In this document: positions 1-62,034 of the stretch, one piece after another
Layout: the number at the start of each line of letters is the position of its first letter
How positions within the stretch are numbered: position 1 is the stretch's first letter
Assembly: GCA_008632985.1 (NCBI GenBank)
Contig: QPGO01000133.1
Span: forward strand, 62,001 to 126,000
DNA from: Psammoneis japonica
Taxonomy: Eukaryota
Length of the DNA stretch: 64,000 nt
Reading direction: 5' to 3'
Program-made: the position numbers and the translations under genes
The notes under the pieces: model-generated
Seen by the model: only the letters and a program-made list of their open reading frames with translations
The model's database searches: none
What the model was told of the DNA's origin: nothing

Positions 1-1
1 T

Positions 2-5679: not shown

Positions 5680-6170
5680 AGTAGCAGTGTTTACAATGTG
5701 TGGTGTTTCATAGTTTGTTCGTCTCTAAATGAGAATAGGCTTCCTCTTCGGCTTCGGCGAAAACAATTTCAGTGAGCCCCGCCCCTGCCCCCTGCCCCCT
5801 GCTGCTGTCGGCACCAACAGCCGGATGCGCAAATGTCTTCGTGGGTTCGGCTGCGAAGGCTGGTGGCTGCACGTGATTTCGATCCCCCCGGAGGTGAGCG
5901 CTAAAAATCCTCGAAAAGCGACCCGAACACAGCTCACGAGTTCACCAGTGATGTCCCCATGTTGTTGCCGGTGCAAGGGCACATCACTTGTTTGGCATGT
6001 TTCTGGTGTCTCACCTGTGGTGATTCCTTTCCAGAAAATCCATCCTTCCCCACCTGCAATGTCGATCACCCATTGCCCCCCACCACCAGCAATGTGGCCG
6101 TTGTTTTGACCATGATTTCCCCTCACCGGCAAAGCCATTTCCCCTCGCCAGCAGTGTCGATCCCCCCCCC

Positions 6171-6177
6171 NNNNNNN
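6171..6177. other. Assembly gap (7 N) among short degenerate repeats
   Basis: NNNNNNN flanked by C runs and repeated GGCAAAGCCATTTCCCCTC. Confidence 0.95.
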
Positions 6178-6812
6178 CCCGCCAGCAATCTCCCCTTCGA
6201 CTGGCCCCCTTGTTCACCCTCCATTGGCAAAGCCATTTCCCCTCACCTGTGATGTCCGTCGCTCGTTTCTCCCGATTTCTCCTTTCTGATGTCATGGCCG
6301 TTGCCCCTCACCTGCGGCACCAATTGCCCGCTTCCTCCACACCTGCAACAAGTGGTCCCTGGGATGCAACATTGTTTGGTGTGCTGTGCTGTGATGCCGT
6401 TGCACCCGCCATTGACCCTGCTGCGCCATCGTCATTGTTGCAACAACTTTGTTGTTGCCATCACATTGCACATGCTTCTGCTGTCCACTTCTTGATGCTC
6501 TCGGTCATTGTTGTTGGCATCATCATGTCCTTCATGTCGGCAGAAAAAAGCAACAACTGCGATGGTGTCACACCTGATGACTCTGCTGCCATTGGCCATT
6601 CTGCACCCCAGCACACTGCTGCTCCCCCCAGCTGTTCAACAAGCACTTTGTTGGGCATCGGCAGAGACACAATGCTTCTCTTTGTTTTGAGGAATGTCCG
6701 GCTTGTGGTTGTCATGTCGCTGATTCCTGTGGGCAAGTGTCTCTTGGTTGTCATGAACATCCTTGGCTCATCCACCTCAGCTGTGGTCTGCGCACCTTGT
6801 CTTCATGCTGGG

Positions 6813-7432
6813 GCTTTTGCCATGCTTGCGAATCGTCCAGCCAGTTCCGCGAACTGGTTCATGGCAGCTTTGACACAAGATCGTCCCAACAGTGCTTTCT
6901 TCAATGTCACAACAAAGCTCGTCACACTCACACTGTTGCTTTTTCTTCCACAACACCTTCTGCAGATGAATCTTCCTCTGCTTCATTTCAAGATGATGGT
7001 GCCTTTGCATTCCTTGCCTCTGACTGTTGTTTGTCTGACAACAATGGCTCCAGAGCTGTTGAGGTGAATGCTGACAATTGGCTCTTGGTGGCTGCGGAAT
7101 TCAGCAACACTTTGGCTTTTGCCATGCTTGCAAATTGTCCAGCCAATTTTGCAAACCGGTTCATGGCAGCTTTGATGCAAGATTGTCCCAACGGCACCCT
7201 CTTCAATGTCGCAACAAAGCTTGCTGCACTCACGTTGTTGCTTTTTCTTCCATGACACCCTCCGCGGCTGAATCTCTGCCTGCTTCATTTGAAGATGATG
7301 GTGCCTTTGCATCCCTGGATGACTGTGCCACAGATGCTGCCTCTGGCTGTTGTCTGTCTGACAACAATGGCCCCAGAGCTGTTGAGGTGAATGCCAACAA
7401 TTGGCTCTCGGTGATCCCGGAATCCAACAACA
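6813..7432. repeat. Tandem duplication, ~300-bp unit
   Basis: GCTTTTGCCATGCTTGC...CCAGAGCTGTTGAGGTGAATGC occurs from ~6813 and again from ~7115. Confidence 0.85.
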
Positions 7433-9120
7433 CTCCCCCCCACACACACACATCATGAGAGAGGATCCCTCCTCATTTTCCCACACTGTGGGTGACTGTG
7501 CCACCAGGTTTGTTGGCACCTCACAAGGCAACATGGGTTGTGGAGTGGACCATTTGGTTGCGAAAGCACTGCAGCAAGCAAAGATTCCTGATTTTGTGCA
7601 CTGTCATCCTCGTGACACTCTTCAGATGATGAAACTGGAAATGTTGACAAAGCTGCTTCCCTCGTCACATCTCAAATTGCTGTCCACCAGTTTCACATCC
7701 AGTGTTGCCAATCTTCCACCAGCTGTTGATGCAATGTTGTGCACCCATCCCACACACATGAACGGCATCAACAATGCCCACTCTTTTGTTCTAGAAGGAA
7801 AGTGGGCCATGTGTCCTGACTTTCCGACACCTGTCGGAGAAGATGAAAGCAATCACACCAAATTGTTGAATGTCCACTCAATCCAACAGAAGCATCAATC
7901 GCAGGTTGATGCCACCCATTTTGTGTGGGCCGATGATGCCAACCCTTTCAAACAATTGAATCTGGCATCAATGCTCGCTGGAGTTGTGACAATTGCACCT
8001 GTTCATGCCAGGTCACAGACTGATGACAATTCCTTCTTGTTTTCTCTCAGCAACAAGAAGGCAGATCACCAGCCAATGTGGGGTTGTTTTCGCCAAGAGT
8101 GTCATCAACTGTCCAACCCAAGCAATGAATGGACATCATTTTTGCCATCACAAGACAGGAGCCATGGCTCAAGTTGCATTCTTTTGGAACTTCTTGCCGC
8201 AATGCAAGATTGTCCCAAATGATGCTCACACCTTCACCCAGCTGCCGCCAACTCCACCGTTGCGTGCTGCTGGATGTGCATTTTCAACTCAAAGCAGTGT
8301 TGGTCTGCCCTGGATGCATTCCAGCTCCAAGTGGGACCTCGCACTGCTGCACTGTGACATCAAGAGTTTTTTGGATCGTGCCACATGTTGCACATGCAGA
8401 TGGCTGCATGTGAAATTCTGCGAAATTGTTTCAGCCATGCTCCCCATTTTGTGAAGCCAAAGGATTTCTGTTTTCAACATTTGTGAGAATGAAAATGCAG
8501 TGGGCATGTTCTTTGATGTCTGGAGAACACACCCGGGCAAAGTGTCAATGATGTGCTTCAAGTGTGAAGGAGGAGTTGCGTTCGTAAAATTGCCTCTTTT
8601 TCTGTTGGCAATCATTCACATTTTCATTGCTCAACAAATTTGCTGCAGAGCTCGCACGCAGAATTCTACGGGCCCAATGTCACACAGAGTCCCACCTGGG
8701 GCTAGAACCCATCCCCCTGACAAGCTGCAAATGTGTTTCCAGAAGAGGCCAGATGGATGGTGTTTGTGTGGACTGGAACATGGATGGCCCCGGGAAAGCA
8801 CTTCTTGATTGCAAGGCATCATCTTCCTGTCCTTCATCTGCAGCTTTGGACCCAAATGACCCACACCTGTCTGTTTGCCAGCAAAATTTTGAGCTGCTGC
8901 AGGGGGCCTCTGAGATTGTCAAGGAGTCACATGCATCTGGAGTGTGGACCAAATCCACTGCCAAAGAGTTCTTGAAGGGCTGTTCCCACAGCTGTGAAGA
9001 GATGGATTGCCTTGTGCAATTCATTGATTTGGATGGGACAGGTGAATCCCATCAAATCCCAGTGCAGTGGGACATGGGCATTGGCATTTTTCCTGAGCAC
9101 AGAGTCAAAGAGCTCATGCA
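7401..9120 (+). pseudogene. Possible decayed DNA-transposon ORF (CACTA/Plavaka-like), interrupted by a MITE
   Basis: Weak motif resemblance only (FVWADDANP, LLAAMQDCP). Tyr-free ORFs lie on both sides of the MITE at 8313. Confidence 0.3.
8313..8713 (+). mobile_element. MITE family A copy, eroded
   Basis: Imperfect TIRs GATGCATTCCAGCTCCAAGTGGGAC ... GTCCCACCTGGGGCTAGAACCCATC. Interior resembles the copies at 15183, 16545 and 31029. No clean TSD. Confidence 0.8.
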
Positions 9121-9668
9121 GAGCGGAAGGTGTGGGAGACATGAGGGGCAGCAGGAGGCATCGAAGTGGCTGCTGAATCAGAGAGAGATGATGGCAAAGG
9201 TGTGTGGGAGAGAAAGAGATGGCAAAGGGTGGCGGGACCACAGCAACGTCAGGAGCACCAAAAGAGTTCTCAAGGCAGTGGTCAATGCACAGAAGAAATT
9301 TGTCAAAGGAAAGCAGGGAGGCAGGAACCTGATGGACAAAAGGAGCGGGGAGTTCAAGGACAGCCACTTCACAGTCACAGAGGCGCTTGCAAATGGAGTC
9401 AGCAAGGGCTGGGGATGGTGTGCAAATTCTTGGATCAACGGCACAAGCAAGTGCCAGGAAGGGAAAGAACAATGGGTTGAAAGTGGTGCCAAGCTTGTGA
9501 AGGAAGCAGTGGACCCAGGGAGGTCAGGAAAATGATGGGAGTCTTTTGGGAGAGCAGGGGGGGACCAAGGGATCAAAAAGAGGAAAGGCAAAATGGGGCG
9601 GCAGTGGAAGGATCACAATCGGAGCAGGAAGAAGATTCAGATGGGCAGCAAGCAGAGGTGTGGGGTGG

Positions 9669-10102
9669 TGTGCAGTGTGCCTCGCCACTGGACAACACGG
9701 CGAGACCGTGCATGAGCCTCTTGTGCGTGGCAACGCAGTGTTGTTGACACGCACCTGGGAAGCACGACCACAGGAGGGCGTGGCTCTAGGTCTCAGGCAA
9801 TTCCAGAAGGATGCTAAGAGAGCATCCGTGTGAAGCACACTGGCCCGTCGTCTGGCCCACGATGGTGGCGTGATTCCACACGATGACATCACTCGTGCAC
9901 AGTGCGTGATGGCTTGATTCGCACGATCCACAATGTGAGTGCACGATCGATTTGATGCAATCCAAATGTGAACGAACAGGGATTTGGCAAGATTCCCCAT
10001 TCACACGATCCCACTTTCTCCACTCTAAACTAGCTCACAATTTTCACAACGACAAAGTCGCAACACATCTTCTTTTTCAGTGCCTGGCACACACACAGGG
10101 CA
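9669..10102 (+). repeat. Gypsy 5' LTR
   Basis: Direct repeat of 13787-14218. Confidence 0.85.
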
Positions 10103-11789
10103 CAGCGACATTGCTCCCGCACGAAACTGCGAAATGTTGGCAGGACCGACAAATCTCAAAACGACCATGAAGAAGCGGATTGAGCCGCCGATTCCGTTTG
10201 CACGGCCGGAGAAGAAAGAGCCACAGCAGGGCGAGTGCCAGACGTTCAAACTGCGCAACAACCCCACTGATCCGGACAGTCCAATGCACGAGATGGGCAT
10301 TCCGTGCCTTTCTGCGGTTGCATGCGAGACACTCCCAATCTTTCTGCGCAACGTGGACCGTGTGCACGAAGGACAAAACATGACCACCGGGCCAGCAAAA
10401 TTTGCCCTTGTGCGTGACCTGCTGCAGGGCGATGCTCTGACGTCATTCAATGATGCCGCTGACAAGCAGGCATCCCAAACCAACGCTGCGTGCGCAGCAT
10501 GCGTCGCGAAGCTAAAGGAAAGCATCTTCCCACATGGGGCGGCACCATTGCAGAAGCGTCATCTGAGGCGCTTCATGCGCAAGCCCGCAGAGGTTTCCAC
10601 TCGTGACTGCATCGCGAGGGCTGTTGAAATCAACGGCCGCATCTCTCAGTTTCCACCCGTGACGGAGGATGGAGAAGCACCGGCACCATTGCCTGATGAC
10701 GAACTGTGCGACATGTTCGAGTGCGGTGTGCCGAACGCATGGCAGAAGTTCATGACGCTACAAAATTTTGACCCGTTGGCGCACACTGTCACCGAATTTG
10801 CACAGTTCTGCGAGCGCATCGAGCAGGTCGAGCTTGCCGAAGGCAACCTGGACCAACACACTGGGGTTCCACGTAAGCAGGGATGTAGAACAGACAATCC
10901 TGAGTCGTTGATCACGACCCAACCGAACACCCGCGTGAAACGTGTCAAGACTGGACATTCCAGCAACGGAGGCAGCAAGCCCAATGCAAAACCTCGGAAT
11001 GAGGAAGACATTGATGCTCTCATCAGATCGAAGGTCGAGGAGTTCTTTGCCAACGCTCAGAAAAAGCGCAAGGCACGCGAGGAGGAGCTCAATCACTTCC
11101 GCGACCTCAACTTAAGTGATTCCGAAGATTCGGACACTTGCCGACACGATGCAGGCAGTTTTAATGCATTGGATGAATGCATCAATGAACAACTGAATTA
11201 CCATCGTACACGTGTTGCAGGCCAATCCCGCAAACGAGTTAAAAAGACTCATCTTGCTCCAATCTTGTTCACAGCTATGAATGCTAAACATGGCAAGGGC
11301 AAGACTCAAACCATTAAGGCACTGCTAGATAGTGGCGCCAGCAGTGCTCTACTCGACAGTCGATACTGTAAACGTCTGCGAAGCCATTCAACGGCTGAGA
11401 CAAAATGGACTACGGTAGCAGGCTCGTTCAGTACGTCTAACGACTGTACCGTTAAATTTTGGTTACCAGAATTATCCGAAACTGCAGAACTTAAACATAC
11501 CGTCCACGTACACAACGGAAAGTTGGGCAAGTACGATATGATTATTGGACGTGACATTCTGGAGACACAAGGCATTGATATTGTCTTCTCTAAACAGATG
11601 ATAGAGTGGCCATTAGTCAATGGAGAAGTACCAATGAGGCACGTAGATGCTACGGTAGAAACCTCCTTCTATCTTCAAGATCCAGAAGCCTTATCTTCAG
11701 AAACCGACCGGATTTCGCGTATTTTAGACGCTAAGTACGCGCCGGCCTGCCTCAAAGACATAACGCGAGAGGCAATAGACTTTCTATAG
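10080..11789 (+). pseudogene. Gypsy gag plus aspartic protease
   Basis: TFKLRNNP...GQNMTTGPAKFALVRDLLQGDAL gag motifs; ALLDSGAS and YDMIIGRDIL protease motifs. Confidence 0.85.
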
Positions 11790-11806
11790 TTCAACAAAAC
11801 GACCTT

Positions 11807-13504
11807 TTGGCACTATTGAAACGCCATCAGTCCTTATTTGATGGGACATTAGGAGAATGGAAGGGAGAACCCTATCATATCCAACTCAAGGAGGGTGTAG
11901 AACCATACCACGCTCGTCCGTATAAAGTACCTCGTGCGTACGAAGCTACGCTACGTAAAGAAGTAGAACGCCTAGCACGTGTCGGTGTTCCCAAACGCGT
12001 TAACCGATCCCAATGGGCAGCTCCATCATTTATCATGCCGAAGAAAGATTTAACGGTGCGCTTTGTTAATGATTTCAGAGAGCTGAATAAACGGATCAAG
12101 CGATTGCCTTGTCCGATTCCTCACATCCAAGATGTGCCACTTGAGCTCGAAGGCTTCATGTGGGCTGCATCACTGGACTCAAATGTGGGCCATTGTCATG
12201 TCCGATTGGATGCTGATGGCAAGAAGCTCTGCACGCTCATCTTCCCGTGGGGCAAGCATGAGATGCAGGCATTGCCCATGGGATCACGCAACTTGCCAGA
12301 CATTTTCCAAGAACGCATGTCAGGCTCATTTGAAGATCTGTCGTTCGTTCGAATGCACTCAGATGACCTTCTCGTCGTGACGAAAGGCACCCATGAAGAT
12401 CACCTCAACAAACTTGAAGAAGTTTCATTGAGGGTCCAGAAAGCAGGACTAAAAGTTGACGCAACTAAATCTCACTTCTGTCAAACCCAATTAGAGTGCT
12501 TGGGTCATCTGGTCAACAGAGACGGAGTGCGACCAACACCTGACAAAGTCGACGCCATTGGGCGAATCGCGACCCCAGCCAATGAACGCGACCTGCGCTC
12601 ATTTGTTGGCATGGTGAACTGCCACCGTGACACGTGGATCAGATGTTCTGAAGTCTTGGCTCTGCTGACACGACTGGCAAGCGAGACTGTTGAGTGGGAG
12701 TGGACGTCCGTTGAAGACGAGGCGTTCGAAACCGTCAAACGGGTGACATCGGATGATGTTTCATTGTCACATCCTGATTTTAATGAACCCTTTGAGACAC
12801 ATGCCGATGCCTCTAAATGTCAATTGGGAGCAGTTTTGTCCCAAGACAATGAACCTGTCGCCTTTCACAGCAGAAAGCTCAACAGTGCGCAATTAAATTG
12901 TGCAACAACGGAGAGAGAATTGCTCACCATTGTGGAGACGTTGAAAGAATTTCGAACGATTCTCCTTGGTCATCGTGCAATTGTGTGTGCTGATCATAAA
13001 AATCTCATGTGCAAAGCACTCAATGCCGAGCGCGTTGTGCGCTGGCGGTCAACATGCGAAGAATGCGGTCCCAAATTACGTCATGTTAAGGGCACCCACA
13101 ACCTGGTCGCTGACGCTCTTGGTCGCCTTCGGCCAGCACCCAGCTTGCCTTCCGAGGCCAATCCGGATGTAAAAGACACTCCATTGAGTCGTCCTTTGCA
13201 TGAAGCTTTTAGTGCAGATGCTCAAGATGAGGCATCTCTGCCTGTTAGCTTCAAGCGCATTCAAAAAGCACAACAAAAGGACAAGCGCCTGCTCTCACGA
13301 GCTGAGGACTCGCCCGACTGCTCCATTCGCGCGTGTCGTGGGGGAGGGTCATCACGACAGTCAATCTGTCATAAGGACAAAATCGCAGCACCACAGTCAT
13401 TGCAGGTTCCGCCAACTGAATGGCGCCACGAGACACTGTGTCACCCAGGTGAGACACATGCGGAAACATCTGTTGCCCAGCACTTCTGCTGGCCTGGCAT
13501 GTAG
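11807..13504 (+). pseudogene. Gypsy RT, RNase H and integrase zinc-binding start, inactivated
   Basis: DFRELNKRI, FPWGK, LPMG, MHSDD (in place of YxDD), ADASKCQLGAV, AFHSRKL, ELLTIVETLKEFR, ADHKNL, NLVADAL, WRHETLCHPG. Confidence 0.92.
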
Positions 13505-13786
13505 AAACCAGAAAGCAGAAGCTTGTCCACTTAAACAACAAGCGTGAAAATCAGAAATGCAAGGAGCATCAATGTGCCGCAGGGCAATTGGCACTTGTCA
13601 AACAGGAGCAATCCTCTAAATGCGGTTCTGACAGCTGTGCAGGACCCGCCAGAGTTGTCCGTGTGTGTGACGACGGCACGTTGCGCACCCAGAACGGAGC
13701 GCTGACAGATGCGTGCAATCTACGGCAGATTGCACCCCATCACCAGTGAGACATCCTGTCACTTAACGGCCCTGATCATGGGGGAG

Positions 13787-14218
13787 TGTGCAGCATGCCT
13801 CGATGCTGGACAACACGGTGAGACCGTGCACAAGCCTCTTGTGCGTGGCAACGCAGCATTGTCAACACGTGCCTGGGAAGCACGACCACAGGAGGGCGTG
13901 GCTCTGGGTCAAGCAATTCCAGAAGGATGCCAAGAGAGCATCCGTGTGAAGCACACTGGCCTGTCGTCTGGCCCACGATGGTGGCGTGATTCCACACGAT
14001 GACATCACTCGTGCACAGCGCGTGATGGCTTGATTCGCACGATCCACAATGCGAACGCACGATCGATTTGATGCGATCCAAATGCGAACGAATGGGGATT
14101 TGGCAAGATTCCCCATTCGCACGATCCCACTTTCTCTGCTCCAAACCAGCTTGTGATTTTCACAATGACAAAGTCGCAACACATCTTCTTTTTCAGCGCC
14201 TGGTGCATGCATGGGGCA
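13787..14218 (+). repeat. Gypsy 3' LTR
   Basis: Direct repeat of 9669-10102, preceded by GGGGGAG. Confidence 0.85.
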
Positions 14219-14382
14219 GGTGTGATGCCAGGAGAAGTCTGGCAAATTGATGTCGGAGAGACACCGATGCAGTGGAGGCAGAGGCAAGAGATGCAGTGAG
14301 TCTTGGGGGAACGCCAGGTCTGGGCAGAGTCGAAGAGTGGGGTGTGGGAATGGACGGCAGAGAGAAGGCAGGAGTGCAGTGT

Positions 14383-14812
14383 GCATGCAGACAAAAGGTT
14401 GTTTTTGTCACGCCCTTTGTGACATTTAAAGGCTGTGACACGTCGCCGTGATGCATTGACTCTTGTTGGCAGCTGCATGTTGCACTCCTCCCCATGCATC
14501 ACGCGCAGAACTAACGTGTGCTGACACTGCACATTTTTGGCAGAACAGTGTGGGTGCGCACGAAGGAACACACAGAACTGCACAGAGTTTTGCGCGTTCG
14601 ACAGTGATCAACGTTGCTGCAGACAACTCCCGCTCAGGGTTTCGAACCCCTGGCCTCCTGCCTGATGGTTGCGCATTGAACCACTCCGCCATGAATTCAC
14701 AACGCAGCATGCATGCAGACAAAAGGTTGTTTTTGTCATGCCCTTTGTGACATTTAAAGGCTGTGACACGTCGCCATGATGCATTGACTCTTGTTGGCAG
14801 CTGCATGTTGCA
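14383..14812. repeat. ~100-bp direct repeat, copies ~328 bp apart
   Basis: GCATGCAGACAAAAGGTTGTTTTTGTCA...GGCAGCTGCATGTTGCA at ~14383 and ~14711. Confidence 0.85.
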
Positions 14813-15182
14813 GGAGGTCATCAGGGCAGTGGAGAAACTTGGAGGGGCTCGGCAACAATTGTTGGAAGAATCAGCAGAAGCGTTGTCAGCAAGACAACAG
14901 CTCTCAAAGGGAGCATCATCCGAGGGATTGCCAAGAAAATGTTCGGCAGGATTTTCAGGGAAAAGGTCATCCACAGCAGAGAAGCAATCAGCAGAGAGAA
15001 CCAGAAGGTGCGAGGTCTGAGACTGTTGAGGATGCACCGCTGGCTTTCAACCCAGCTGAGTGACACAGGCAGCAACCAGTGCAATCGCAAGGATTTGCAA
15101 ACAAACAAACCAAGAACAAAAAAATGGTCAAGTGTGTTTGTGTGTCATGGCATTGTGTTGCCACATCAGTTTGATTGCTTTG

Positions 15183-15499
15183 GATGCTTTCCAGCTCTGG
15201 GTGGGACCTCGCACTGCTGCACTGTGACATCAAGAGTTTTTTGGATTGCATCACATGTTGCCAAAGGCTCTCCATTTTCAACATTTGTGAGAATGAAAAT
15301 GTGCCAGGTGCACTCTTTAATGTCTGTAGAACACGGGAGGCACTTCAAGTGTGAAGGAGGAGACACATTCGCAAAATTGCCTTTTTTCTGTTGGCGATCA
15401 TTCACATTTTCGTTGCTCAATGAATTTGCTGTGGAGCTTGCACGCAGAATTTCATGGGCCCAATGTCACATGGAGCCCCGCCTGGGGCTGGAACCCATC
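15183..15499 (+). mobile_element. MITE family A copy, internally deleted, TSD TTTG
   Basis: TIRs GATGCTTTCCAGCTCTGGGTGGGAC / CCGCCTGGGGCTGGAACCCATC; TTTG on both sides. Confidence 0.85.
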
Positions 15500-28221: not shown

Positions 28222-28473
28222 TCACTCTGCCCACCATGCAGGCTCTTGCAGGGTTCATTGCCCATCTCAGACTGTCTCTCAGCCCTGCTGGAGCTTGTTG
28301 CCATCACAGACACACCTTCTCATTGCCCAGACCCAGCGTCGCCCCTCCTTCCTCCTGGCTGTTTTACTCCCATTGGCTTGATGCCCCTCTTGCTCAGCTT
28401 CCTGCCACCGGGCACCCCGCGCCGCTGCGTGGTGCCGAGCCTCTCAGCACACATGCCACCCAGTGGCCTCGCG

Positions 28474-49800: not shown

Positions 49801-52563
49801 ATGCTAGAGTGAACGTTTCGCATTGTTTATTCCTTCGTTTCGCTAGCTTTAATTTATTTGAGTTTTACTCGTTTTCTTTGATCATGCTTTCACTGATGCC
49901 GACTAAGGAGTTGTTTGTTCTTACAGCTTTTGCCTTGTTTCCAGAGCGACAAGAACTGTGCTGCTGTAACAAGACAAGCTTTCACATTGCTGTGCTGATG
50001 TTGAACTAGTCTAGTTGTCGCTTTTACATCGTTTTGTGTAAGGTCGGAGAACATGAAAGTGTTCTTCAAGCAGGGTCTCAAACACTCGCTTCTTCAAATG
50101 GCATGGTGTGCGTCTCTGAAGAACTCGGCCAAGAACAAACACGAAACTCAAAGGGTCCACACAAGCCATGCATTTAACGACTGGGAAAGCTGCAGATGGC
50201 ACCCCTTCCAATGCCAGAAACTGATTAAGTGTCACATTTGGGGTTTCCTCCAATCCCAGCAACACTCGTTGGCGTGGCCTTGGGTTGGTGAATTGGGGTG
50301 TGTTTTTCTCTCCTTTTTCATTTGGCACTCTTTTGTGCCAAAAATCACTTGTGAGACACCTCCTTTGCTGTGCTTTGCATGGCTCCACAGCCACAAAATG
50401 TTGGCAAATGAGCATGACTGCCTTCAAAAATGTTGTCCTTTGCAGCCACCCCACACTGTGAAAATGGGCTCCAGCAATTGATCACGTTTTGTGGTGTTGT
50501 TTTCTCATGCTGTTTTTGCACTTGTTTCACAAGCTCCTCAAGCCATTTGGCTGTGAAGCAGTTCACTCAATTGCTCCCATGCATCATCAAGTGTCAGAGA
50601 GCAGTGGGCACTTGGACAAAAGCACACCAGATGAGATGCCTTTCCATGTCAGAAGCAGCAGTTGTGCATTTTCCTCATGTTGCCATCATGGCAAGAAAAA
50701 GTGGCCTGGTGTGTGCACTGACTTTGAAGCTTTGGCATTTGCAGGGGTCTGTGGAGAAACACAAGAAAAAACAAAAGATGGCCAAAGAGACAGATGCATG
50801 GACAAAGACATGACAGTGTGTGCACATGAATCAACCTCAACCACCAAAAATGGTCTGCATGTCATTCACAGCTCCACAGCCCCCCAGTCAGGGGCAATGG
50901 CAACACATGTGTTGCTCTTGTCACAAAGAGCTTGTTTCTCATGTGATGCTCCATTGCAGGAATGTTGGGTGAGTGCTTGCACACACAAACAACAACCCAG
51001 CAATGACCCAGCAGCAACTGCAGCACACAGTTGTTTCCATGCGAGGGTCTGCATCTGCACAAGATTGACAAAATGTCAACATTTTTGTTTTGTGTGTCCA
51101 CCACAGACAGCTGCTCCTTCAAGTCTCTTTGTTGCTCTGCACAGGACTTGCAAAAGCTCTGGCCACCCAGCTTGTTTGTGACAACAACAACAACAACAAC
51201 AACAAGTGTCCAAATGCCCCCAAACATGGAATGGACAAAGGGCCTGCCCCCGCATCTGTTGTCACAGCCAGCACTGGATCAACACCATCATCATTTCTTC
51301 CCTTGTGGGCTGGGCATGAAAGTCTGTTTGGTTGACAGTGAAGGCTGCACAACCACTTTTTTGCAAGGTTCCACAGCTGCTGAGCACAATTTTGCCAGAC
51401 TTGACTTGATGTGCAGATTGTCAAAGAGGGTTGAGCTGATCAAAAGCTTGGTCAGCAAATCAAGAATCAGTGTTCAAAGCTCATCTTCCAGCAGCACATG
51501 CCACATTGCAGCAGCAGTGCCACAGTCATCTGGCACATTTCCATTGTGCCCATTTTGAGTTTGGTGCATGCCTCAGTTTTCCACATTGAGCATTGTCTGT
51601 CACACAAAAGATGTGGCAAAGATGATGATGACAGCTGAGGCAATTCTGTGAACATGAGCTGCGATGCTGAGTGTCAAAGCTGGTGCAGCCAATCATGCAG
51701 CCAAATCCAGCAGCTCAAACTGGGAAAGAGGCTGCAACCTTTTTTTTCTGTTGTTGGTGCTGCCATGTGCTCACAACACTCTCATGCACCTGTTTCAGCA
51801 GCTGCCAAGAGACACTTCTTCAAGTGGCAGTTCTTGGGCCATGGACACATGTGGGCTTTCATCTGAGAAGTGCCCTCACTCAGCACAGTTCCATCCGGCC
51901 TTCATGCTGGACCTGCTGAAAACCACTTTTACAAACCACCACAAAAATTGCACACCATGACGACTGCCGCTGACATGCCATCGTGTGTGGCTCAACAACC
52001 TTTCAGTGTTTTCTGATGCCACTGACAGACTCGGTGGTGTGACTCTTTCATCTCAGATCACCAGGGTGGCTTCAGCATTGTCACAAAATGTCACAACCAT
52101 TAAAAGAAGGCATCAAAAAGTGTGTGGTGAATCTTCTCCATCAAACAGGGTTGCAGTCAAATGTGAGCTTGACATGCTTCATTCGACCATCAAGTCATGT
52201 GCAGCACGCATGATGGAAAGCTTTGTTGAACTGGGTTGTGCTGGAAAGTGTGCTCTTTGTGTCTCTTGCTGTGCCCGGTCTGTTGGGTTGAGAGGTTGTG
52301 ACTTGATGTTGTGCTGCACGGTGTGAAACAGCCAAAGGACTGAATTTGAGATGTGCTTGGTCTGTTTTGAGCAGCATTGCTGTGGCATTAGAGCTGTTCA
52401 AGGTTCTGTTGCTCACACAACCAATCCTCCAAACCCCAAGATCAATTCGGTGCATCATTTCATGCACCACAAGAAAAGCCCAGGTCAGCTCTTTGCGGAT
52501 GACGTTCGCGCCATTTCATGATCACGAACCGGCTGAAGATCTTGCAGAAGGAATGCAGGAGAT

Positions 52564-52637
52564 GACTGAAAGTCAAGAGTCTGCAAAGGAAATGATTTTT
52601 GACTGAAAGTCAAGAGTCTGCAAAGGAAATGATTTTG
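52564..52637. repeat. 37-bp tandem duplication
   Basis: GACTGAAAGTCAAGAGTCTGCAAAGGAAATGATTTT twice. Confidence 0.9.
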
Positions 52638-54699
52638 AACCTGGAGGCTTCAGTGCTGAGAACTCTGTCATGGGGGTTCATGGACAAACTGGCCAAGTCA
52701 GGGCTGCATCTGGGAGCACCATCAGCAGACTGTTGTCACATTGAATGCATCTCTGACCCTGTTGTGTCACTGTTTGCAGAGTGCCCTGCTGGATGAAGAG
52801 TTGTCAACAAAGAGGAAGAGCTCAGCATTGGAAAGATTCAAGAGAGAAGTGCAGCATTTAAATGGAAAGCTCTCCTCTCTCTGATGATGCAGCTTGAAGC
52901 TGAACGGAGGAAGCTCTCACCATCTGGTGAAGATCTTTTAGATGTCATTCAGCAACTTCAACATAAAAGAAGAATTTGCAAGAGACACATTGCACCAAGA
53001 AACTCTCACGAACTGTTGCCTCTCTGCAGAAGGTGCAGTTGGTGGTGCTGCCAAGTGTTTTGATGACCATCTGGCCCATTTTCACAAGTCCCTTGCCAGT
53101 GTCACCATTGCTTGTTGATCTCTCTTGACTGAGTTGAAAATCACTCTAGAACAAACCTGGAGGATGCTTGTCAAGGTGGTTGAAGGAGAAGTGGATGCCA
53201 GTGAGGATTTTTGCTGCCCTCCCCCCCCCTCCCCCTCTCAAAAGAGTTCATTCTTGCGTGCATCAATGAGATGACAAAACTTCTCAAAATGGGGCTGAGG
53301 ACATGCTGACGCAAAGCAAAATCAAGGCTCTTGCAACAGTGTGGGAGCGGGCACTGAACACCAACACAAGTGAGCATGGTCTTTTCTGGGGGAAATCAAG
53401 GAAGCTGCCTCTTTGCTGCAATCAGAGAGATTGAGTCCTTTTGACATCATCTTGCAGTCATGCAATTTGGAGGGTGCCAAGGAACAGGTGATTGCAGAAA
53501 CAAAGCAAGCCAGCAAGTCATGCTGTCAGCTGAGGGTGAAGCTGGAAAAATTCAACCTGGTCCACAAGGATGTGGAAAAGTTGAGGTCAAAGCCAGATGC
53601 AAAAAGCAAAACCATCTCCCTTTGTTGTGAGATTCAAAATCTGAACCCCAAGCTTGCCGATCTTGATGAGAAGAAATGCAGCAAACAGTGATTGCTTGCC
53701 AAGAAAACAAGCAGCTCAGCTCTGCCTGAGGAAGATTGATTTGGGAAAGACACGCAAGGGGCAAAACAAGTCTTGAAGTTGCCACCATTCTGCCAAGATG
53801 CCAAGGCAGTCGCGTCCATGTGCAATTCATCCATTTTGTGATCCACTGTCAGATGAGAAGACCCTGAACAATGAAAATGAAATGATGCAACAGAGCACGG
53901 ATTGGTTTGCCTGTGCAGTTTGTGTCTTTTGAGAAACAGAAGACCAGATGTGGTGCAGGGCAATGTTCAATGAGTGCTGTGCAGGGTGTGTTCAACTCCT
54001 TTGGGCAAGAGCATTTCCAACAGCCAGCTGTTCACGCACAGCATCAAAATCAGCATGTTTCAGCCACAAAACCACAACGCATGCACTGTCACCAGTGCCT
54101 CCTGTTGCTTCATCAGCAATGTGTCATGCCATGCTTTTTCATCATGCATGCTTCAACAGCCCAACATCCTCCTTGTCAGAGGCACCCGGCTAAAGTGAGT
54201 CTGCCAGTCTTGCTTCTGATTCAACAATGTGAAGATTCGATGCTCACATGGAACCTTCCCCATTGCTGGAAAGCCAACAAGGTGCACCCATGATCTCATT
54301 GCTGTGTTGGTCCATGAGCTCTGATTCTGGGACAGAGCAGAGGCTGCAAGTTGGACACAGCCGTTCAATGCCAAGCACACAACACACACATGGTTCATTG
54401 TCATGTCAATTTGGACAGTGTGCTGCATCAGCAGCAGTTCCTGCTTTCTTCAACAGTGCGTGAATTGAATCAATTGCAGCTCTGTCCACCTGTTGGCTGA
54501 GATCAGCTGCATTTGTTCCTGCAAGATGCAAAGTGTCTCAAGATTTTTTGCCTTTTCTGCATCTTCTGTCAAAGCCAAAGGTTCTTCTGCTGGGGAAAGA
54601 AGTGATGTGGCCTTCAGATTGAAGCTTGAGCTGCTGTGTCTTTGGTGGAGGTGCTTGTTTGTTCCTCAGACTCCAACACAGGAGTTCTGCTGCAATGCT

Positions 54700-55620
54700 T
54701 TCTGCACTTGCCTCTCAAAAGAACTTCAAAAGGTCCTGCACGAAGGATGGACGGAACTGCTCTGAGTGAGGTTGCTTCTTAGATGAGCTTTGGCTGCAGC
54801 TTGAGACTCTTGCCAGCAGCCCTGCATTTCTTGGATGCAAGTGCTTGCCTCTTGCCAAAGCAGCAACTGCCATGGGTGCCCTTGTGGCATCAACAACAAT
54901 GCACAGCAGTGGAGTGCCAGGTCTGGGTCTTCTTGGACAAGGTCTTGGGGGCTTGGTGTGGCAGCACAGCCACTTGAGCATTTAATTTCCTTTTCCATTC
55001 TTGTCAAACTTTTCCTTTTGCTGTGGTCCTTTCCAGTCTTCTGATGTTTGTCTCCCTTGCCCACCTTGCCCCAAGGGCTGGGCTTCTGGAGCTGAGATTT
55101 TCTCTTGCTTTTGCTGGGGGTGTGCCCCACTTTTCCTTTTGTGAAGGAGAGCCCTGTGCTTGTTGTTTGCCAAAGTCATGAGCTGATCCACCATCAACAA
55201 GAAGTCATTTTCATCTTTGTGCACCTCTTGCTTGCACAAGAGCAGTGTGCTCAAGCAACAAATGTCTTGTCAGATGATGTCAAGCAGCCCTTGAAGAACA
55301 AACTGGTTGGCAAAGCTTCAGCAGTTTTTCCTTGCAAATGAAAAGTTGCTGGGAGCAGCCAGACTCATCAGCTGAGTGGCAATTGGGTGTCAAGTTCAGA
55401 CACAGCTCAGTTTGGGTTTCACTTGCAGCATGTCTCACATCTGAGCAGCTCTCCTGGATTGTGACCATGCCCATTGTAAAACAGGCTCTAAAAGCAAAGT
55501 TTTCAATTTTGTTCTGTCCTTCTCAGACCCTTGCTTTGACCTCTGTGCCTCTTTTTAGAGTGAAAGCATTGTGCAACCTTGTGCATTGCATGCTGTGTGT
55601 CTTGAGCTGCTTGGCTTGAA
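54700..55620 (-). pseudogene. Highly decayed Copia gag-like remnant
   Basis: Fragments LFFKGCLTSSDKTFV, QLMTLANNKHRAL and QEKISAPEAQ resemble gag segments LFKGY..SD..FV and LM.LA.NKY..L. Confidence 0.45.
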
Positions 55621-58600
55621 ATGCAAATGTGAGTCTCTTCAGACACACAATTTTTTTCCAACTCATTCTGCCCACAGTTGCACCCAGAAAATTCCTGAAG
55701 TTGTCACAATGGACATGTCAGCTGCAGCTTCAAAAGGGATGTCAGCAATCCAAATGATGCCACCTTTGGCTGCCCAATTTTGCTTCCTCATGTGGTCTTC
55801 CAGCGACAACTTCAAGAGTTGAAAGAGCTCACCAGGTGCACAGCAAAGAGTTTCCACACAGCTTCTGAGCTCTGCATGCTCCCACAGAGCTTGTGTCCAT
55901 GATTGGGGCAGCAGCCAATGACCCTGTTGCATGCCTGTGCTGGGGTCAGCACAAACAAGACTGGTGCTGGGCTTGCAAATGAGAATGAGTTTGTGTGCTG
56001 CAAACTTGCACTGCACTCAGAGGATTCAGCACCCAACATTTTCTTTGGTGCAGAGGGGAAGCACATGTTTGGCAAAACCAGAGCCAAGCCAGAAGGCAAC
56101 AATCTTGTTGTGAGCAGTGGTGATGGGGGACATCTGAGAGAGGCCACTTGTTGCCAAAGGTTGCCTCTGATGGAGAAGCAAGAAGAAGCAAGAAGTTGGA
56201 AGATTTTCATCAAAGAAGAGCCATTTTGAGGAAAGGGCCACAATGTTCCAAATGTGTGCACAACAAGATGAAGTGGTGTGATCTGTGCCCAGTCATGAGA
56301 ACATGCAATGCAGGCTGGCAATTCAGTCAACTGCTCATGAAGAGATGTGTGACCACCTCAAAATGACTGGGCAAAAAAGAGCCAGAGCAGGAACTCACAA
56401 AGCCAGCAAAAGCCCAGTGCAAGAATCACCTCATGCAAAGTGGGAGATGAAAGAGGGCTGCAAAAAATGCTGGAGAGGAGTTTGATGCTGACAGCACCTT
56501 CCAACAGAGAGCAGCCTGGAAGACAAGGTGTCAAAGCCAGCCAGTGCATGTGAAGATGGGAGTTTGGCAAAGATGACATTGATGACAGTGTGCTCATTTC
56601 TGTGTGCCAACAAGAGTCACACAAAGCAGCCTTGAGTGGGCTGCAAAAAAGCTCACTTGGAAAGGGGCAGCACCAACTGGCAAAGTTGCCCACAGAGTCA
56701 ATTTCTCCCACCAAAACTGCAAAAGCCACATCAAAGCATTGATGGCCAGCTGTCAATTTTTTGCAGTCAAGCTGCAAAAAGGAAAAAAGATGACAGCCAG
56801 AAACCCAAAACTGATTTGATCCACAAAAGGGCACTCCATCTCATGGAGTGTCAACGAAAAAAAAACAAGTCAGTTGGGCACATTGCTGCAACTGTGCTGC
56901 CCCAGTGAGAAAAACAAACAAAAGCTTGAGAAAAAAGCTGAGAGGCTCAACCTGACTGACAAACTTTTTTGCTTTGACAGCAGCAAGCTGTGATGAAAAA
57001 ATCACCAGCACCATCTGAGCAACCTGCCATCAAAGCTGACAGAAGGTGCCCCAAAGCAACACCCAGCTCTCTTCAGGATGACAGCTCATTTCCAACTGGT
57101 GACAATTTTCACAACTTTGACAACAACAGCTCAGTCAGTGCCATCCAGAGAAAAAAAAACTGCTCCCAAGATGAACAGCTCTGACAACACAAAATTGCCA
57201 CACCCCCGGACAGCCACCACCAGCTGCAGTTTTTCCTCATGCAGGCAAACTGCCTCCTGGCAATTGCGCACATCTTGCTGTGCTCTGCACCAACCCATTC
57301 AAATGGAGCAGCTTCCTTGAGCAAAAGGTGAGAAAATGACTTTGACAATGGGGTGGGGAGCACAAATCTTTGGACACAAATCTTTTGATGTGTGAGCAGG
57401 GCGAGTGCTGTTGCCATGGGCGGGAGACACACTGGGCAAGGAGACAAAAAAAAAGTTCAAGCAAATGACAATGCATCTGCACAACCCCAAGAGGATGGCT
57501 CCCTCATTGCCAGTGGGGTGCACATGGTGCAATGGCACAAAGAGAAGTTGCTGCCCTGCAGCACAATTGATCCATGCGGGCTTGTGGTGTTCACCGCAAG
57601 CTGCAAGTGAAAAACTGCAGTCTGTCCTCTGCCTTTTGGCATCTGTGTAAAAGTCAACTTTGTTTCCAAAATTGATTTGTTTTTCACTGCACAGTGCTTC
57701 TTGCATCTTCTGACATTGTCAATTGATGTGCTCCTGTGCCTGCATTTGCCAGGTTCGTGGTTCTGAGTGCCATTGCTGCTGTGGCAAGGAGGGTTTTTTT
57801 TTTGCTCCAAGAGGACAGACTGGTCATCAGCAGAATTCTGCGTGGCAATGCAGGGCCCATCAAGAAATTTGCAAAGTTTTTTTAGCATCCGGTGTCAAAC
57901 GCTTTGCCGCCACAATGGGAATCTTTTGAAAATGACCCGTGACGTGTGACGCCTCAATTGCTTGAAAACATCCGCACAATCTGTGAGTTTTTGCACCAAA
58001 GCTGTTGTCTTCTCAAAAGTTTTGCAAAAAAGAACTTCACTGCCAACTGATCAGGTGCATTTCTGCAAATGTGTTGTTCTAAAATGCTCCTGATCAGTTG
58101 GCAGCAAAGTCCATTTTTCGCAGAATTAAAATTCACTGAGGGCAGACAGACAGAGAGTTCAACATTTTTCTTGGCACTGGTCTGCACAATTTCCGCACAT
58201 TTTTCAACAATGACTCTGCAGCATGAAAGATTGCCATTGCTCTCACAATGGCATCATGGCAAAAACTTCACAACACACACTCTTGTTGAACAATGTGGGC
58301 CGATGAGCTCTCATTCTTCATTGTTGTTTTGCCTTGTCAGCCACATTTTGTGTGCGGGCATTTGTCATGAATTAGAGGTGCACAATGTAAAAGTCATCCC
58401 CATCAACAAGGACATTTGATGACAAAAAATCTGTGAAAATTCTCAAACCACAGATTTTTTTAGAAAGTGGCCATGTGCCATCTTTGGCCCCCAATTGTGC
58501 CATGATGCAACACTCTTTTGCCCCGCTGTTTTCACAAAGATCTTTGTTGACCTTCTGACCAATGCCAGCAGATGGGGTCTGCATGTGAAAAAATGGGAAG

Positions 58601-59224
58601 CCACTCTTAGAGTGGTTTTGGACAGTTTGCTCTTCCTGGAGGACAGGCCGGTTGGAAGTCAAGAGGACAGACCGGTTTTGTGTTTGCAGTGCACGGTGGG
58701 GCCCCACCAACGGTGCATTTTTCCAGACCGGGTGAGGCACAGACAGATGACAGAGTTTAAATTTAATCCCCATTGAGCTTTGAATGATTGTTCAAATTTG
58801 GAGATTGTGTTGTGATCGCGAGTCACCTTGTGAGCTGGCCGGCCTGCATTCATTTCAGTTTCTCCAAATCTTTTTTGTCAAGTCACCACGCGTTTTGCCA
58901 TGCTTTGAGTTTTTTCATTTGACGATGTTGCGTTCATCAAGATGGTGTCTTGGTGCCATGGTGAAATTGTCAAATGTTGCAAAGCAGCACTCCCCACCCA
59001 GCAATGAATCCGCTGCTGCATTTGTTGACGATTCTGCTGAACAATGGGACAGCGTTGTGGTTGTTGTGATGCACCAGCATGGTGGCATGGAGTCATTTTG
59101 CAACCTGATTCTGAGTCTGATTCAGGTGCTCCATTTCTTTGCAATTTGCTTGGGTTGCCTGAGAGTTCTCATGACAAGCTTTTGACACTTTGTGGTTTGT
59201 TGAAAGTGAAATTCATTTGCATGA

Positions 59225-59830
59225 TTAGAGACTTGGCTGCCACTCCAAGTTTTGTTTTTCCAGGAATTTGTGCATGATGAGGAAGGCTTCATTCACAAAA
59301 AGAGTGAAAGCGTGATGTGTCCCACAACAAACAGAAAAGGATCGGCCTTTGTTCATGTGTCGGAAGCAAAGGACAATGTTGGCAACGCAACTCATGTGCT
59401 GAGGTGGGCTTGGGGGGCAGTTTGCAGATTGAGAAATTTTCATCTCTTTGCTCAAAGATTGCACTTGCTGATTCACTTGCATTGTTGAATGTCAAGTCTC
59501 TCAGACACACGATTGGTGGCCCCAATTGCGCGCACTTTTGGATTTGTTGTTGCTTTTTTGCGTCAATCAGCATCAAGTGGCTGATGACATTGAAGCATCC
59601 AAGGCCATCACAATGGACACGTTTGTTCAAAAGTCAAGTGATGGGCATTGGTCGTGTCGTTTGCATGATGTTGCCACAGGAAAACCCAGTCTGCCTTTCT
59701 CAAGTGTGGCGCATCTTTGAAACCACATCTGCAGCTCAAAAGGGAAACGACTGCGATGTGAACAGCCATGCCGCCGCATCAAAAGGAGTGTCTCTTGCAT
59801 CAGTTGATTGTTGGAACAAAAGATGTTGGG
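59225..59830 (+). pseudogene. Decayed member of an algal host gene family often annotated as kinesin-light-chain/TPR-like
   Basis: CPTTNRKGSAFVH...DNVGNATHVLRWAWG, FWICC-FCVNQHQV and IGRVVCMMLPQENPVCLSQVWRIFE, split across frames. Assignment from recalled motifs. Confidence 0.5.
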
Positions 59831-60349
59831 AGCGTTGATGCTCTCACGGCGGTTTCAATGGACCGTGTGCGCACCCATCAGTGTCTTTTCTGCGTGTGCA
59901 GATGTTTTGCATGGCGTGATTTCTGCAGGACAAATTGCGCAATCTGACGTCGGCAGGGATCTCCCTCCGTCAAAAAATTTAGCCTGCAAAAGGACAAAGC
60001 ACACGAAACAAAAAATGCCGACAACCATGACGAGCACCGTCGGACAAAATGCCGTCCCAGAGAACCAGCCAATGGCCTCCACTTGCCCCTTTCAAGGAGA
60101 TGACTCAAGACATGCCGAAGCATCAGTGGTTAAAAAGGGGCAAGTGGAGATCAAAGAGTCAAACAAAAAACCGGGGATTGCACTGCGCAAGATTTTTGCT
60201 GGATTTCTCCACGGGATGAGGACACAACGGGAGCGGTGGTTCCTCTGAAGCATGCCGCAGGGGCAAAGCAGTGTGGCGGGATAGACCGGGTTGCATTCAA
60301 ACGAAGAAATTCATGCATGTTAGCAGTTGTCGTCGACAAAGCAACGAGA

Positions 60350-60660
60350 ATGTCATTCCACCAGCATGTTTTTTTAACACAAATTACAAAGCACACGGAT
60401 GCCGCACTCCTGCCAGAGGGCCAGGCTGCAGCTGTCAACAACCAGCATCTCAAGCGTGTGATGCTGTTTTTTGAGTGCAGTGGTCTAGAGTCTAAGTCGA
60501 CGAAGCAACTGGGGTGTCATTCCACCAGCATGTTTTTTGCAAGACGAGTTGCAAGATGCACACCGGCGGCATCCGATGAAGGCTCCTGCTGGAGGGCTGG
60601 GCTGGGCCACAGCTGTCAACAACCAGCATCTCAAGTGTGTGATGCTGTTTTGCATGAGTG
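60350..60660. repeat. Degenerate direct repeat
   Basis: TGTCATTCCACCAGCATGTTTTTT and GCTGTCA.CAACCAGCATCTCAAG.GTGTGATGCTGTTTT each occur twice. Confidence 0.75.
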
Positions 60661-62034
60661 TCGCATGAGTGCAGTGGTCTGGAGACTAGAAAAGCAAGTG
60701 CAAAACATCCCAATTGCTGCCAAGCAACTTTCAGACTCCATCATTCCTCATTGCTCATGGCAATCCACAAATTAGAACATCTGTAAAGCTGAGAGACCTT
60801 CAACTCATACAAGCCTTTGAACTCTTGCAGGGTTTTCCACAAGAGCCCTCTCATTCACGCAGCATGGTGATGGCAACATCATTCCCATCACACTTCACAA
60901 GCTCCCTGGATCGTTGCGAGAAAGGCTTCACCTGCACGTTGAAGTGCTACACTCATCCATCTTCAGGCACAACTTCTTTCAACATGGCGGCACTCTCAAA
61001 CATGAACAAACCTGTGCATCTCCACTGTGAATGGATCCATGTCGTTGCCCAAACAATTGAGCTCGGCCAACAAATGCGAAACCACAGAAGTGTCCAAAGA
61101 AGGTTGGCAGCTGACCATTTCACATTTCTCTTGATCGTTGAGTCTGAGGTGAAAAGTTAATTTACAATCCAGATCAGCCCTGTCGAGCTGAGTAAACACT
61201 CTTTATGAGCAAACAAGAAAACCGTGACAAAAAAGGGGTTGAGTTTTGTCGATTCACGATGCACGGCATGGCATGCAAAACACAGAAGGAACGTCTTTAC
61301 ACTTGCCAAACAAGACCAATTTTCCCATCTAGACCTGAGCATTGCTTATCATACACGAGGGAATTCGTCAAATCATCCACCGTTGTTTTCTTAGAAGAAC
61401 TGGCTCTTTGTTTCTTCGTGCCACGAGCCTGCTCTTTTTCCTCTTCGTGGTGAAGTCAGAAAAACGAGAGAACTTAAAAGATGGCAAAAGTGTGCAACAA
61501 TGTAGTTACTTATACTCTACCTTGCTTCCTTTTGTTTAGATTGTGCAATTGACAACGGCGCCGCGACGATTGCGGTGTGTAGGAAGTGCCATTGCGTTGC
61601 GACTGAAAAAGATGCTCCGAGCTCCGAGCGAGCCGTTGGATTTGTGAGACGTCATCACTGTGTAGAAATGTACACAGAGAGTTGGTACAAATCAGATTAG
61701 TACCACATCCTACGCACAGGGTCCCCGTGTAGGGCCTACGCGCGTGAAACCGTCGTGCTCTCTGCATTAAGTTCAGTTCTTTTTTCTGTCGCGCTTTCTT
61801 CTCTCCACTGGCAGACATGTTTTTGACTACGGTGCCGTAGTTGCTCCTCGACGATTGGCCCCACCCGGCACATAATGCCTGTGTGAATTCTGGTTCGCGC
61901 GTTCAACGGTCGAATTTTTATTCGTTCCCAATGACATTGCTGAAACGTCGAAGTTTTTGAAACGGGTGCAGGTTAGCAATCATCAACAATACATCATCGC
62001 AACAATCTGCCCATCGCTTGAAATAGATTGCGAC

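Follow-up and report, generated by a model that had tools for sequence, protein, structure and literature searches.

Hypermutation of mobile DNA that is specific to TA (TpA) dinucleotides was reported very recently, from a single rhizarian alga. According to the main text of a preprint (Mettrop et al., bioRxiv 10.64898/2026.01.13.699255), integrated viral DNA of Bigelowiella natans undergoes TpA>TpG/CpA hypermutation; of the 231 mutations that two viral inserts gained in mutation-accumulation lines, 230 were A>G or T>C, all stated to lie on TpA, and the authors propose an ADAT2-like DNA deaminase. Hypermutation of this type is ongoing and switchable, at about 1e-7 to 1e-6 de novo changes per site per generation. 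The words 'context', 'trinucleotide' and 'flank' have no occurrence in that main text, which gives no flanking context. Here, we analyzed a window of 64,000 nucleotides, that is, the whole stretch at positions 62,001 to 126,000 of Psammoneis japonica contig QPGO01000133.1, in which TA is strongly depleted in blocks of mobile DNA and the leftover TAs differ in their flanking bases from those of normal DNA. This flank-selective TA loss is real and strong, and the target 5'-TAY-3' (Y, pyrimidine; R, purine) put forward in a preliminary description made by eye is right in direction and too simple. The leftover TAs are probably slow substrates of a TpA-directed A:T>G:C hypermutation acting on integrated transposon DNA.

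The window resembles B. natans, as presented in the main text of the preprint, in strict TpA targeting, in TpG/CpA products on either strand and in the confinement to foreign or mobile DNA. A further likeness is that, genome-wide, low TpA coincides there with high CpA+TpG, a signature in which reverse transcriptase and transposase domains are enriched. However, the host in that case is a chlorarachniophyte, whereas the present window is diatom-like by homology of its fructose-1,6-bisphosphatase (FBPase), and the depletion there is mild (rho_TpA, the relative abundance of the dinucleotide, is 0.45 in a region derived from nucleocytoplasmic large DNA viruses) compared with 0.01-0.15 over two thirds of the window. 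Loss of CpG is not described in that main text either. In the literature searched, no report of TA-depleted transposons in diatoms was found, and the only match was the B. natans preprint, whose supplement may already hold the sequence context.

A two-state hidden Markov model (HMM) on TA counts per 100 bp split the window into 11 depleted blocks, with 137 TAs across 43,400 bp, and 10 normal blocks, with 940 across 20,600 bp. The individual depleted blocks have a rho_TA of 0.01-0.15 and a rho_TG/CA of 1.2-1.8, while rho_TA is 0.50-0.69 and rho_CG about 1 in five gene blocks. Pooled values for depleted blocks versus genes are 0.05 versus 0.60 for TA, 1.70 versus 1.19 for TG/CA, 0.40 versus 1.01 for CG and 1.25 versus 1.17 for AA/TT. 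AA is therefore not depleted, and among the NA dinucleotides only TA is. What is lost is TA and, at a slower pace, CG, without involvement of a wider WA motif; the footprint of polymerase eta, which produces A>G at both TA and AA, is not seen in the AA/TT values. The principal depleted blocks are as follows.

5801..11100: 13 TAs, rho_TA 0.04, rho_CG 0.53, rho_TG/CA 1.65; holds copy A of a family resembling miniature inverted-repeat transposable elements (MITEs), and the 5' long terminal repeat (LTR) and gag part of an LTR element
12101..17800: 29 TAs; holds the reverse transcriptase (RT)/RNase H part of the LTR element and MITE copies B-E
21701..24900: 3 TAs, all YTAR
25501..31000: 17 TAs; contains mutated MITE copy F
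31401..32500: 6 TAs
39301..44400: 4 TAs in 5.1 kb, rho_TA 0.01, rho_CG 0.27, rho_TG/CA 1.80
44801..47900: 9 TAs (YTAR in 7 cases); includes a solo-LTR fragment (46266-46465, minus strand)
50101..61100: the largest block (11 kb), with 39 TAs, of which 29 are YTAR

Very low CpG values occur inside the last of these, where rho_CG per kb falls to 0.02 at 55-57 kb (55001-57000). An assembly gap of seven Ns occurs within a poly-C run at 6172-6178, inside a depleted block. Stop-free stretches of at least 110 amino acids number 145 in the depleted blocks, in overlapping frames; because the TAA and TAG stops are gone, gene callers would return many false open reading frames (ORFs) there.

The residual TAs of these blocks are mostly YTAR, as had been noticed by eye. 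YTAR makes up 89 of the 137 (65%; TTAA 36, TTAG 23, CTAA 19 and CTAG 11), followed by YTAY with 24, RTAR with 20 and RTAY with 4 (2.9%), whereas the 940 TAs of normal blocks comprise 152 YTAR (16%), 513 of the mixed types YTAY and RTAR, and 275 RTAY (29%). Both differences are highly significant by Fisher's test (YTAR, odds ratio 9.6, p = 3.1e-31; RTAY, odds ratio 0.07, p = 3.2e-14). Between 5760 and 61150, the depleted blocks hold 81 YTAR and 3 RTAY among 120 TAs, and none of 100,000 label permutations reached 81 YTAR (the maximum was 47). The result does not depend on the HMM, since isolated TAs, with no other TA closer than 100 bp on either side, are YTAR in 32 of 48 cases, compared with 111 of 718 clustered ones (p = 4e-14). 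Nor does base composition make survival uniform over the NTAN tetramers: with the expectation drawn from the flanking dinucleotide frequencies of the depleted blocks themselves, 89 YTAR stand against 43.2 expected and 4 RTAY against 26.3 (chi-square 98, p = 3e-14). The eleven survivor positions cited in the preliminary description are all as it gave them, with two to be shifted by one base, to 7792 and 60486.

Chance or the ancestral composition of the elements could in principle create such a spectrum, and we regard this as next to impossible in view of the Fisher, permutation and composition-corrected tests. The unmutated transposon islands of the window, moreover, contain 34 YTAR, 49 RTAY and 90 mixed TAs, which is about the gene baseline, and this ordinary NTAN spectrum shows that ancestral composition is not the cause. 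No effect of age on the survivor spectrum was detected between sub-blocks with rho_CG of at least 0.5 (48 of 76 YTAR) and those below 0.5 (40 of 57; p = 0.46).

For a quantitative description, each TA was treated as two half-sites, defined by the base 3' of the A on the top and on the bottom strand, in a Poisson model where the loss is the sum of both. This additive model with four parameters fits all ten reverse-complement tetramer classes (deviance 2.9, 6 df, p = 0.82) and is far superior to a context-free model (likelihood ratio 211, p = 2e-45). The relative losses, which come from pooled survival and are compressed by unequal exposure between blocks (a point to be counted against their face value), are given below with 95% confidence intervals (CI).

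T 3' of the A: 7.7 (4.9-14.7)
C 3' of the A: 5.0 (3.2-9.4)
G 3' of the A: 2.3 (1.3-4.4)
A 3' of the A: 1 (reference)

The four-letter model is better than one that distinguishes only purines and pyrimidines (p = 4e-6, on 130 of the 137 survivors, with block 1-800 left out), and the motif is thus graded (T>C>G>A) and not binary. As a consequence of the additive flank dependence, the RTAY sites (ATAT, GTAC and ATAC/GTAT) are lost first. Relative to normal blocks, the density is about 27% for YTAR, 3.8% for the mixed types and 0.5% for RTAY, so that YTAR is slowed rather than exempt. The context also extends to the next position: A at +2 is found in 53% of survivor half-sites and in 29% of normal ones (p = 1e-6), which holds for A, G and C at +1 and makes loss about twofold slower still. 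Where T stands at +1 (13 survivor half-sites), A never follows at +2; it would form a second TA there. Positions +3 to +6 are flat. Survival per half-site is highest for TAAA (0.49) and TAGA (0.32) and very low for TATT (0.018), TACT (0.017) and TATA (0), and the best persisters are TTAA and TTAG/CTAA within junctions of T-runs and A-runs. Thermal breathing of the duplex was considered for the order of loss and rejected: by nearest-neighbour energies GTAC is more stable than CTAG, although it is lost about ten times more completely.

The depleted blocks are mobile DNA. An LTR retrotransposon and MITE copies lie within them, and the gene blocks are spared. A Pfam search on 144 ORFs from the depleted blocks returned no significant family, most of the depleted DNA being without a recognisable domain, and self-comparison of the window in a purine/pyrimidine alphabet revealed no further large repeat families. 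The elements used below are the following.

9659..14218 (plus strand): LTR retrotransposon of the Ty3/gypsy type, with LTRs at 9659-10102 and 13777-14218
10080-11789 and 11807-13504 (plus strand): its ORFs, gag-protease and RT/RNase H, respectively; no integrase
11101..12100 (plus strand): unmutated 1-kb island inside this element, with 66 TAs, rho_TA 0.90 and rho_CG 1.13
8300..8730 (plus strand): mutated MITE copy A
15175..17190: mutated MITE cluster, comprising copy B at 15175-15510, a tandem pair at 15370-15786 / 15786-16202, copy D at 16530-16900 and copy E at 16880-17190 (minus strand)
28465-28875: mutated MITE copy F
24917..25478 (plus strand): unmutated MITE-like element with terminal repeats of the GACGYGTTCCAG type, GC content 0.36; 55 TAs in 24901-25500
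31000..31440 (plus strand): unmutated MITE copy G, the reference for copies A-E, with 29 TA sites scored
44395..44800 (minus strand): unmutated MITE copy H, the reference for copy F

The two LTRs are 90% identical as letters and 99.1% identical as purine/pyrimidine strings. They differ at 43 of 432 aligned sites; 41 of the differences are transitions, 36 fall in YR steps and 11 are TG/CA discordances. In the RT/RNase H frame, compared with 44 homologues that keep theirs, all 18 conserved tyrosines of the depleted part are replaced (by 9 His, 7 Cys, 1 Trp, 1 Met and 1 Arg), and the YxDD motif now reads HSDD, while two of three conserved tyrosines are kept in the unmutated part of Pol. Targeting is therefore nearly exclusive to TpA, with 36 of 43 LTR differences in YR steps and 16 of 18 tyrosines turned into His or Cys; CpG>TpG/CpA is also present.

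The unmutated island has sharp edges, the TAs at 10886 and 12450 being the nearest ones outside those at 11113 and 12088. Possible origins are gene conversion from an intact copy, protection of this segment, or chimeric assembly of different copies. Both reading frames of the LTR element run through it.

The MITE-like family has a length of about 400 bp and terminal inverted repeats of the GACGCGTTCCAG type, on the basis of which its members look like DNA transposons. Three unmutated MITE-like copies with GACGYGTTCCAG terminal inverted repeats (24917-25478, 31000-31440 and 44395-44800) lie within heavily mutated DNA and thus offer a direct view of the ancestral state. The process must therefore be either episodic or blind to these copies; their presence is compatible with episodic action and gives no measure of its rate. 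The MITE at 24917-25478 is flanked by a direct duplication of 235 bp (about 90% identical; 24673-24907 and 25483-25712), which far exceeds a normal target-site duplication.

The alignable copies also bear on the view that the residual TAs are not survivors at all, but either arose anew through ordinary transitions of CA and TG (C>T or G>A; for instance, by deamination at methylated CWG) or were protected by selection or site-specific methylation. New TAs do occur, as the CTAG at 8703 in MITE copy A demonstrably arose from the CTGG of the terminal repeat, and the loss of CpG suggests cytosine methylation of the blocks. As a general explanation we consider this very improbable. The CA and TG sites of the depleted blocks are 53% mixed, 24% of RTAY type and 23% of YTAR type, from which 23% YTAR would be expected among new TAs and not 65%; deamination at CWG predicts at least as many RTAG as YTAG and no TTAA, whereas ATAG occurs 2 times, GTAG 4, CTAG 11 and TTAG 23, and TTAA, with 36, is the commonest. 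Furthermore, the residual TAs at 8667, 28548, 28673 and 28751 align to TA in unmutated copies.

Which base pair of a TA changes cannot be read from the survivors, because TA is its own reverse complement and a pyrimidine at +1 (TAY) is equivalent to a purine at -2 (RTA). The products, in contrast, discriminate: a TAY target turns YTAY into YTGY and RTAR into RCAR, and an RTA target does the opposite. Since the changes are transitions only, the purine/pyrimidine skeleton is conserved and such product tests are possible; the skeleton class totals per 1000 are indeed similar between depleted and gene blocks (63.6/67.1, 58.1/59.0 and 55.3/53.1). In the Y-YR-Y class, the share of TG rises more than that of CA in 11 of 11 depleted blocks (Mann-Whitney p = 0.007). 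Estimated from composition, with CpG loss split evenly between TG and CA, the fraction of lost YTAY that turned into TG is 0.84 (95% CI 0.68-1.01) on the gene baseline and 0.69 (0.57-0.83) on that of the unmutated transposon islands. The even split is backed by 19 CG/TG versus 16 CA/CG differences between duplicates. Alignment of the mutated MITEs to the unmutated copies gives 29 TG and 5 CA from YTAY, and 15 CA and 10 TG from RTAR, with balanced symmetric controls (7 and 8 for RTAY; 4 and 3 for YTAR). In addition, the frequency of AT falls (0.054 versus 0.067 in genes) and that of GC rises (0.075 versus 0.056) despite the opposing decay of CpG, as TAT>TGT and TAC>TGC predict. Counts at codon boundaries (12 TA>TG in 43 conserved I/M/T sites and 4 in 31 N/K sites, with Leu>Ser also counted) lean to TAY but are biased, one outcome being silent, and were not used as evidence.

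An alternative is that the duplex is recognised symmetrically, as a palindromic RTAY read in double-stranded DNA by a dimer or through DNA shape, with either base pair changed at random. The purine at -2 and the pyrimidine at +1 would then count equally, and a single-strand TAY motif would be a misreading. We consider this unlikely, as it predicts neither the TG excess of the Y-YR-Y class, nor bootstrap intervals that exclude 0.5 on both baselines, nor 29:5 at YTAY in the MITEs, nor the opposite shifts of AT and GC. The survivors, nevertheless, fit symmetric reading equally well, the additive half-site model being symmetric by construction, and the discordances between duplicated copies (11 RTAY, 10 mixed and 8 YTAR) fit a fraction of about 0.85 with a CI that, in this small sample, includes 0.5.

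Several further observations weigh against the directional reading, and some of them speak for the symmetric one. Tyrosine codons of Pol in YTAY context became Cys (TG) in 4 cases and His (CA) in 5, below the prediction for a fraction of 0.75, while purine-preceded ones gave 3 versus 3 plus one double change; this test rests on one ORF because no significant Pfam family was found among the ORFs of the depleted blocks. RTAR in the MITEs is skewed only 15:10. The minimum number of independent MITE events, counting at most one per outcome per site, is 19 versus 10 by hand tally and not significant alone; the MITE copies share ancestry, and the reference copies are themselves not pristine. The composition estimate leans on an assumed ancestral baseline and on the even CpG split, with only 19 versus 16 differences behind it. 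As regards the agent, the unmutated MITEs and the 1-kb island within a mutated element indicate that targeting is not simply regional, the order T>C at +1 without a preference for G at +2 is unlike the UACG of native TadA, and all evidence comes from a single 64-kb window, with the enzyme a candidate by inference.

Taken together, these products partly show that the change at YTAY and RTAR mostly hits, in some 70-80% of cases, the pair whose A is followed by a pyrimidine, and a purine at -2 may add a smaller effect. The TAY target is thereby partly upheld, as the usual edit, with the tyrosine codons dissenting, and is better put as a preference that is graded, extends to +2 and is not exclusive.

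Regarding where and when the process acts, the counts of RTGY and RCAY on the top strand are about equal, which indicates no strand bias. LTRs that diverged after integration, mutated MITEs and equal strands together imply action on integrated DNA and not on an RNA or cDNA intermediate. Across sub-blocks, rho_CG and rho_TA fall together (Spearman 0.72, p = 0.001), and TA is nearly gone while CpG is normal at 9651-11100, 12101-14210 and 1-3300, so that TA disappears faster than CpG decays.

Region 1-3300 is TA-depleted (rho 0.05-0.15) with normal CpG (0.92-1.01) and a mild TG/CA excess, and may be an element that was hypermutated recently, before CpG decay. It carries two long minus-strand ORFs (2-1654 and 1685-3169) without a Pfam family, whose nearest Atlas clusters are unnamed diatom proteins.

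Within sharply bounded transposon blocks, TA turns into TG or CA on both strands about equally, and CpG decays to the same products more slowly. The agent is presumed to be a sequence-selective DNA adenine deaminase of the TadA/ADAT2 kind, which would convert A into hypoxanthine, read as G. It might be drawn to silenced mobile DNA and defend the genome permanently, as the mirror image of fungal repeat-induced point mutation (RIP). No deaminase gene was found within the window by gene annotation and Pfam searches of ORFs.

Another possible chemistry is directed at thymine: the T of 5'-R-T-A-3' would be modified, for example by oxidation to 5-hydroxymethyl- or 5-formyl-uracil by a TET/JBP-like enzyme, and mispair with G to yield T>C, which reads as A>G at TAY on the opposite strand. 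RTA>RCA is the reverse complement of TAY>TGY, and the same sequence evidence supports both equally; thymine modification favouring particular dinucleotides occurs in other protists. Still, deamination of A is what the sole worked precedent proposes, and the 5' U/T requirement of TadA-type enzymes explains the strict TA rule without an added assumption, for which reasons we rate thymine chemistry as improbable, slightly more so than symmetric recognition.

The proposed deaminase would resemble TadA and ADAT2-ADAT3 in requiring T/U directly 5' of the edited A, and native TadA also in having a pyrimidine (C) at +1. According to passages of PMC12296453, UACG is what native TadA depends on, whereas TadA-8e retains only UA. 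Here, however, T at +1 is at least as good as C, G at +2 is not favoured (half-site survival is 0.082 for TACG against 0.025 for TACC and 0.017 for TACT) and the substrate is chromosomal DNA on both strands. Of the resemblance to TadA suggested earlier, the 5' T therefore stands, the +1 pyrimidine stands in part and the C at +1 with G at +2 does not, which leaves a relaxed UA/UAY likeness only.

Fungal RIP is similar in being a permanent, dinucleotide-specific and transition-only mutagenesis of mobile DNA, with sharp blocks and destroyed frames. Unlike RIP, which turns CpA into TpA in another kingdom, the present process turns TpA into CpA/TpG, and the gain of TpA in duplicated sequence that marks RIP is absent, since TpA is lost and duplicated host genes are unaffected. 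ADAR and APOBEC3 likewise produce clustered, deaminase-type transitions in mobile elements, but ADAR acts on double-stranded RNA and APOBEC3 on minus-strand cDNA before integration, whereas the LTRs here diverged after integration, MITEs are mutated and strands are equal. ADAR prefers a 3' G, opposite to the order found here. Action through an RNA intermediate, limited to retroelements, is at odds with both the post-integration divergence of the LTRs and the mutation of MITEs with terminal inverted repeats. As for the 5' side, the main text of the B. natans preprint (10.64898/2026.01.13.699255) describes U as favoured by ADAR and G as disfavoured.

The remainder of the window is eukaryotic and intron-poor, with genes for FBPase, a rhomboid protein, two sulfotransferases and a protein with a HYR domain. 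The block that served as host baseline and two of its genes are listed below.

32501..39300: baseline block of normal gene sequence, with 287 TAs and rho_CG 1.02
35030-37192 (minus strand): rhomboid
37653-38678 (minus strand): FBPase

The nearest named relatives of the FBPase are from diatoms (Nitzschia inconspicua, 84%, as well as Epithemia, Amphora and Fistulifera), and the best match overall is at 88%. Atlas look-ups with the FBPase and the ORF at 1688-3208 gave no functional lead. The sulfotransferase genes lie on a 2-kb duplication (48353-50341 and 61996-63936, 86% identical), in which the genes are not TA-depleted and the common 3' flanks (50101-50341 and 63601-63936) are. Neither this pair nor the HYR repeats are TA-depleted, and as duplicated host sequence is spared, plain duplication is not the trigger.

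Contigs of two (X1 and X2) of three read runs of one sample were compared over 24901-44800; they may derive from the source of the assembly and so do not count as independent support. Contig depth over the MITE bins is 21,800-132,900, versus about 50-60 for single-copy sequence, and the changes in the reads are mainly transitions (A>G 205, T>C 196, C>T 157 and G>A 159), with 19-32 of each transversion kind. X2 covers 17 of 30 bins, mainly in the gene block, and is cDNA-like, though not recorded as RNA; one of its contigs links 38650 to 38748, which fits a 97-bp intron (38651-38747) near the 5' end of the FBPase gene. The 119 metagenome loci matching a 14-base MITE motif were rejected as chance matches, with no blastn match to the MITEs.

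These results have practical consequences for annotation. The replacement of tyrosine by His or Cys makes domain searches fail, and common repeat finders miss part of the copies, although these remain 99% identical when written as purines and pyrimidines. The four half-site rates, together with the +2 effect, define the specificity that any candidate deaminase or thymine-modifying enzyme must reproduce, and the extended motif is new as far as the literature was searched. It is conceivable, though we put it forward only tentatively, that diatoms carry a natural, sequence-selective, DNA adenine-editing defence directed at 5'-T-A-Y (T>C>>G>A, with A at +2 disfavoured) and saturating on integrated transposons, which would be the same as, or convergent with, the chlorarachniophyte system. 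If so, the extended motif would be an enzyme fingerprint usable to identify the deaminase, the mutated elements could be restored computationally for classification, and a new class of DNA A-to-G editor would be at hand. To our knowledge, little has been documented on natural deaminases acting on adenine in chromosomal DNA, and an enzyme with such a footprint would interest base-editing work. Finally, the near-saturation of the process in a diatom-like genome means that it may be widespread among SAR (stramenopile, alveolate and rhizarian) protists.

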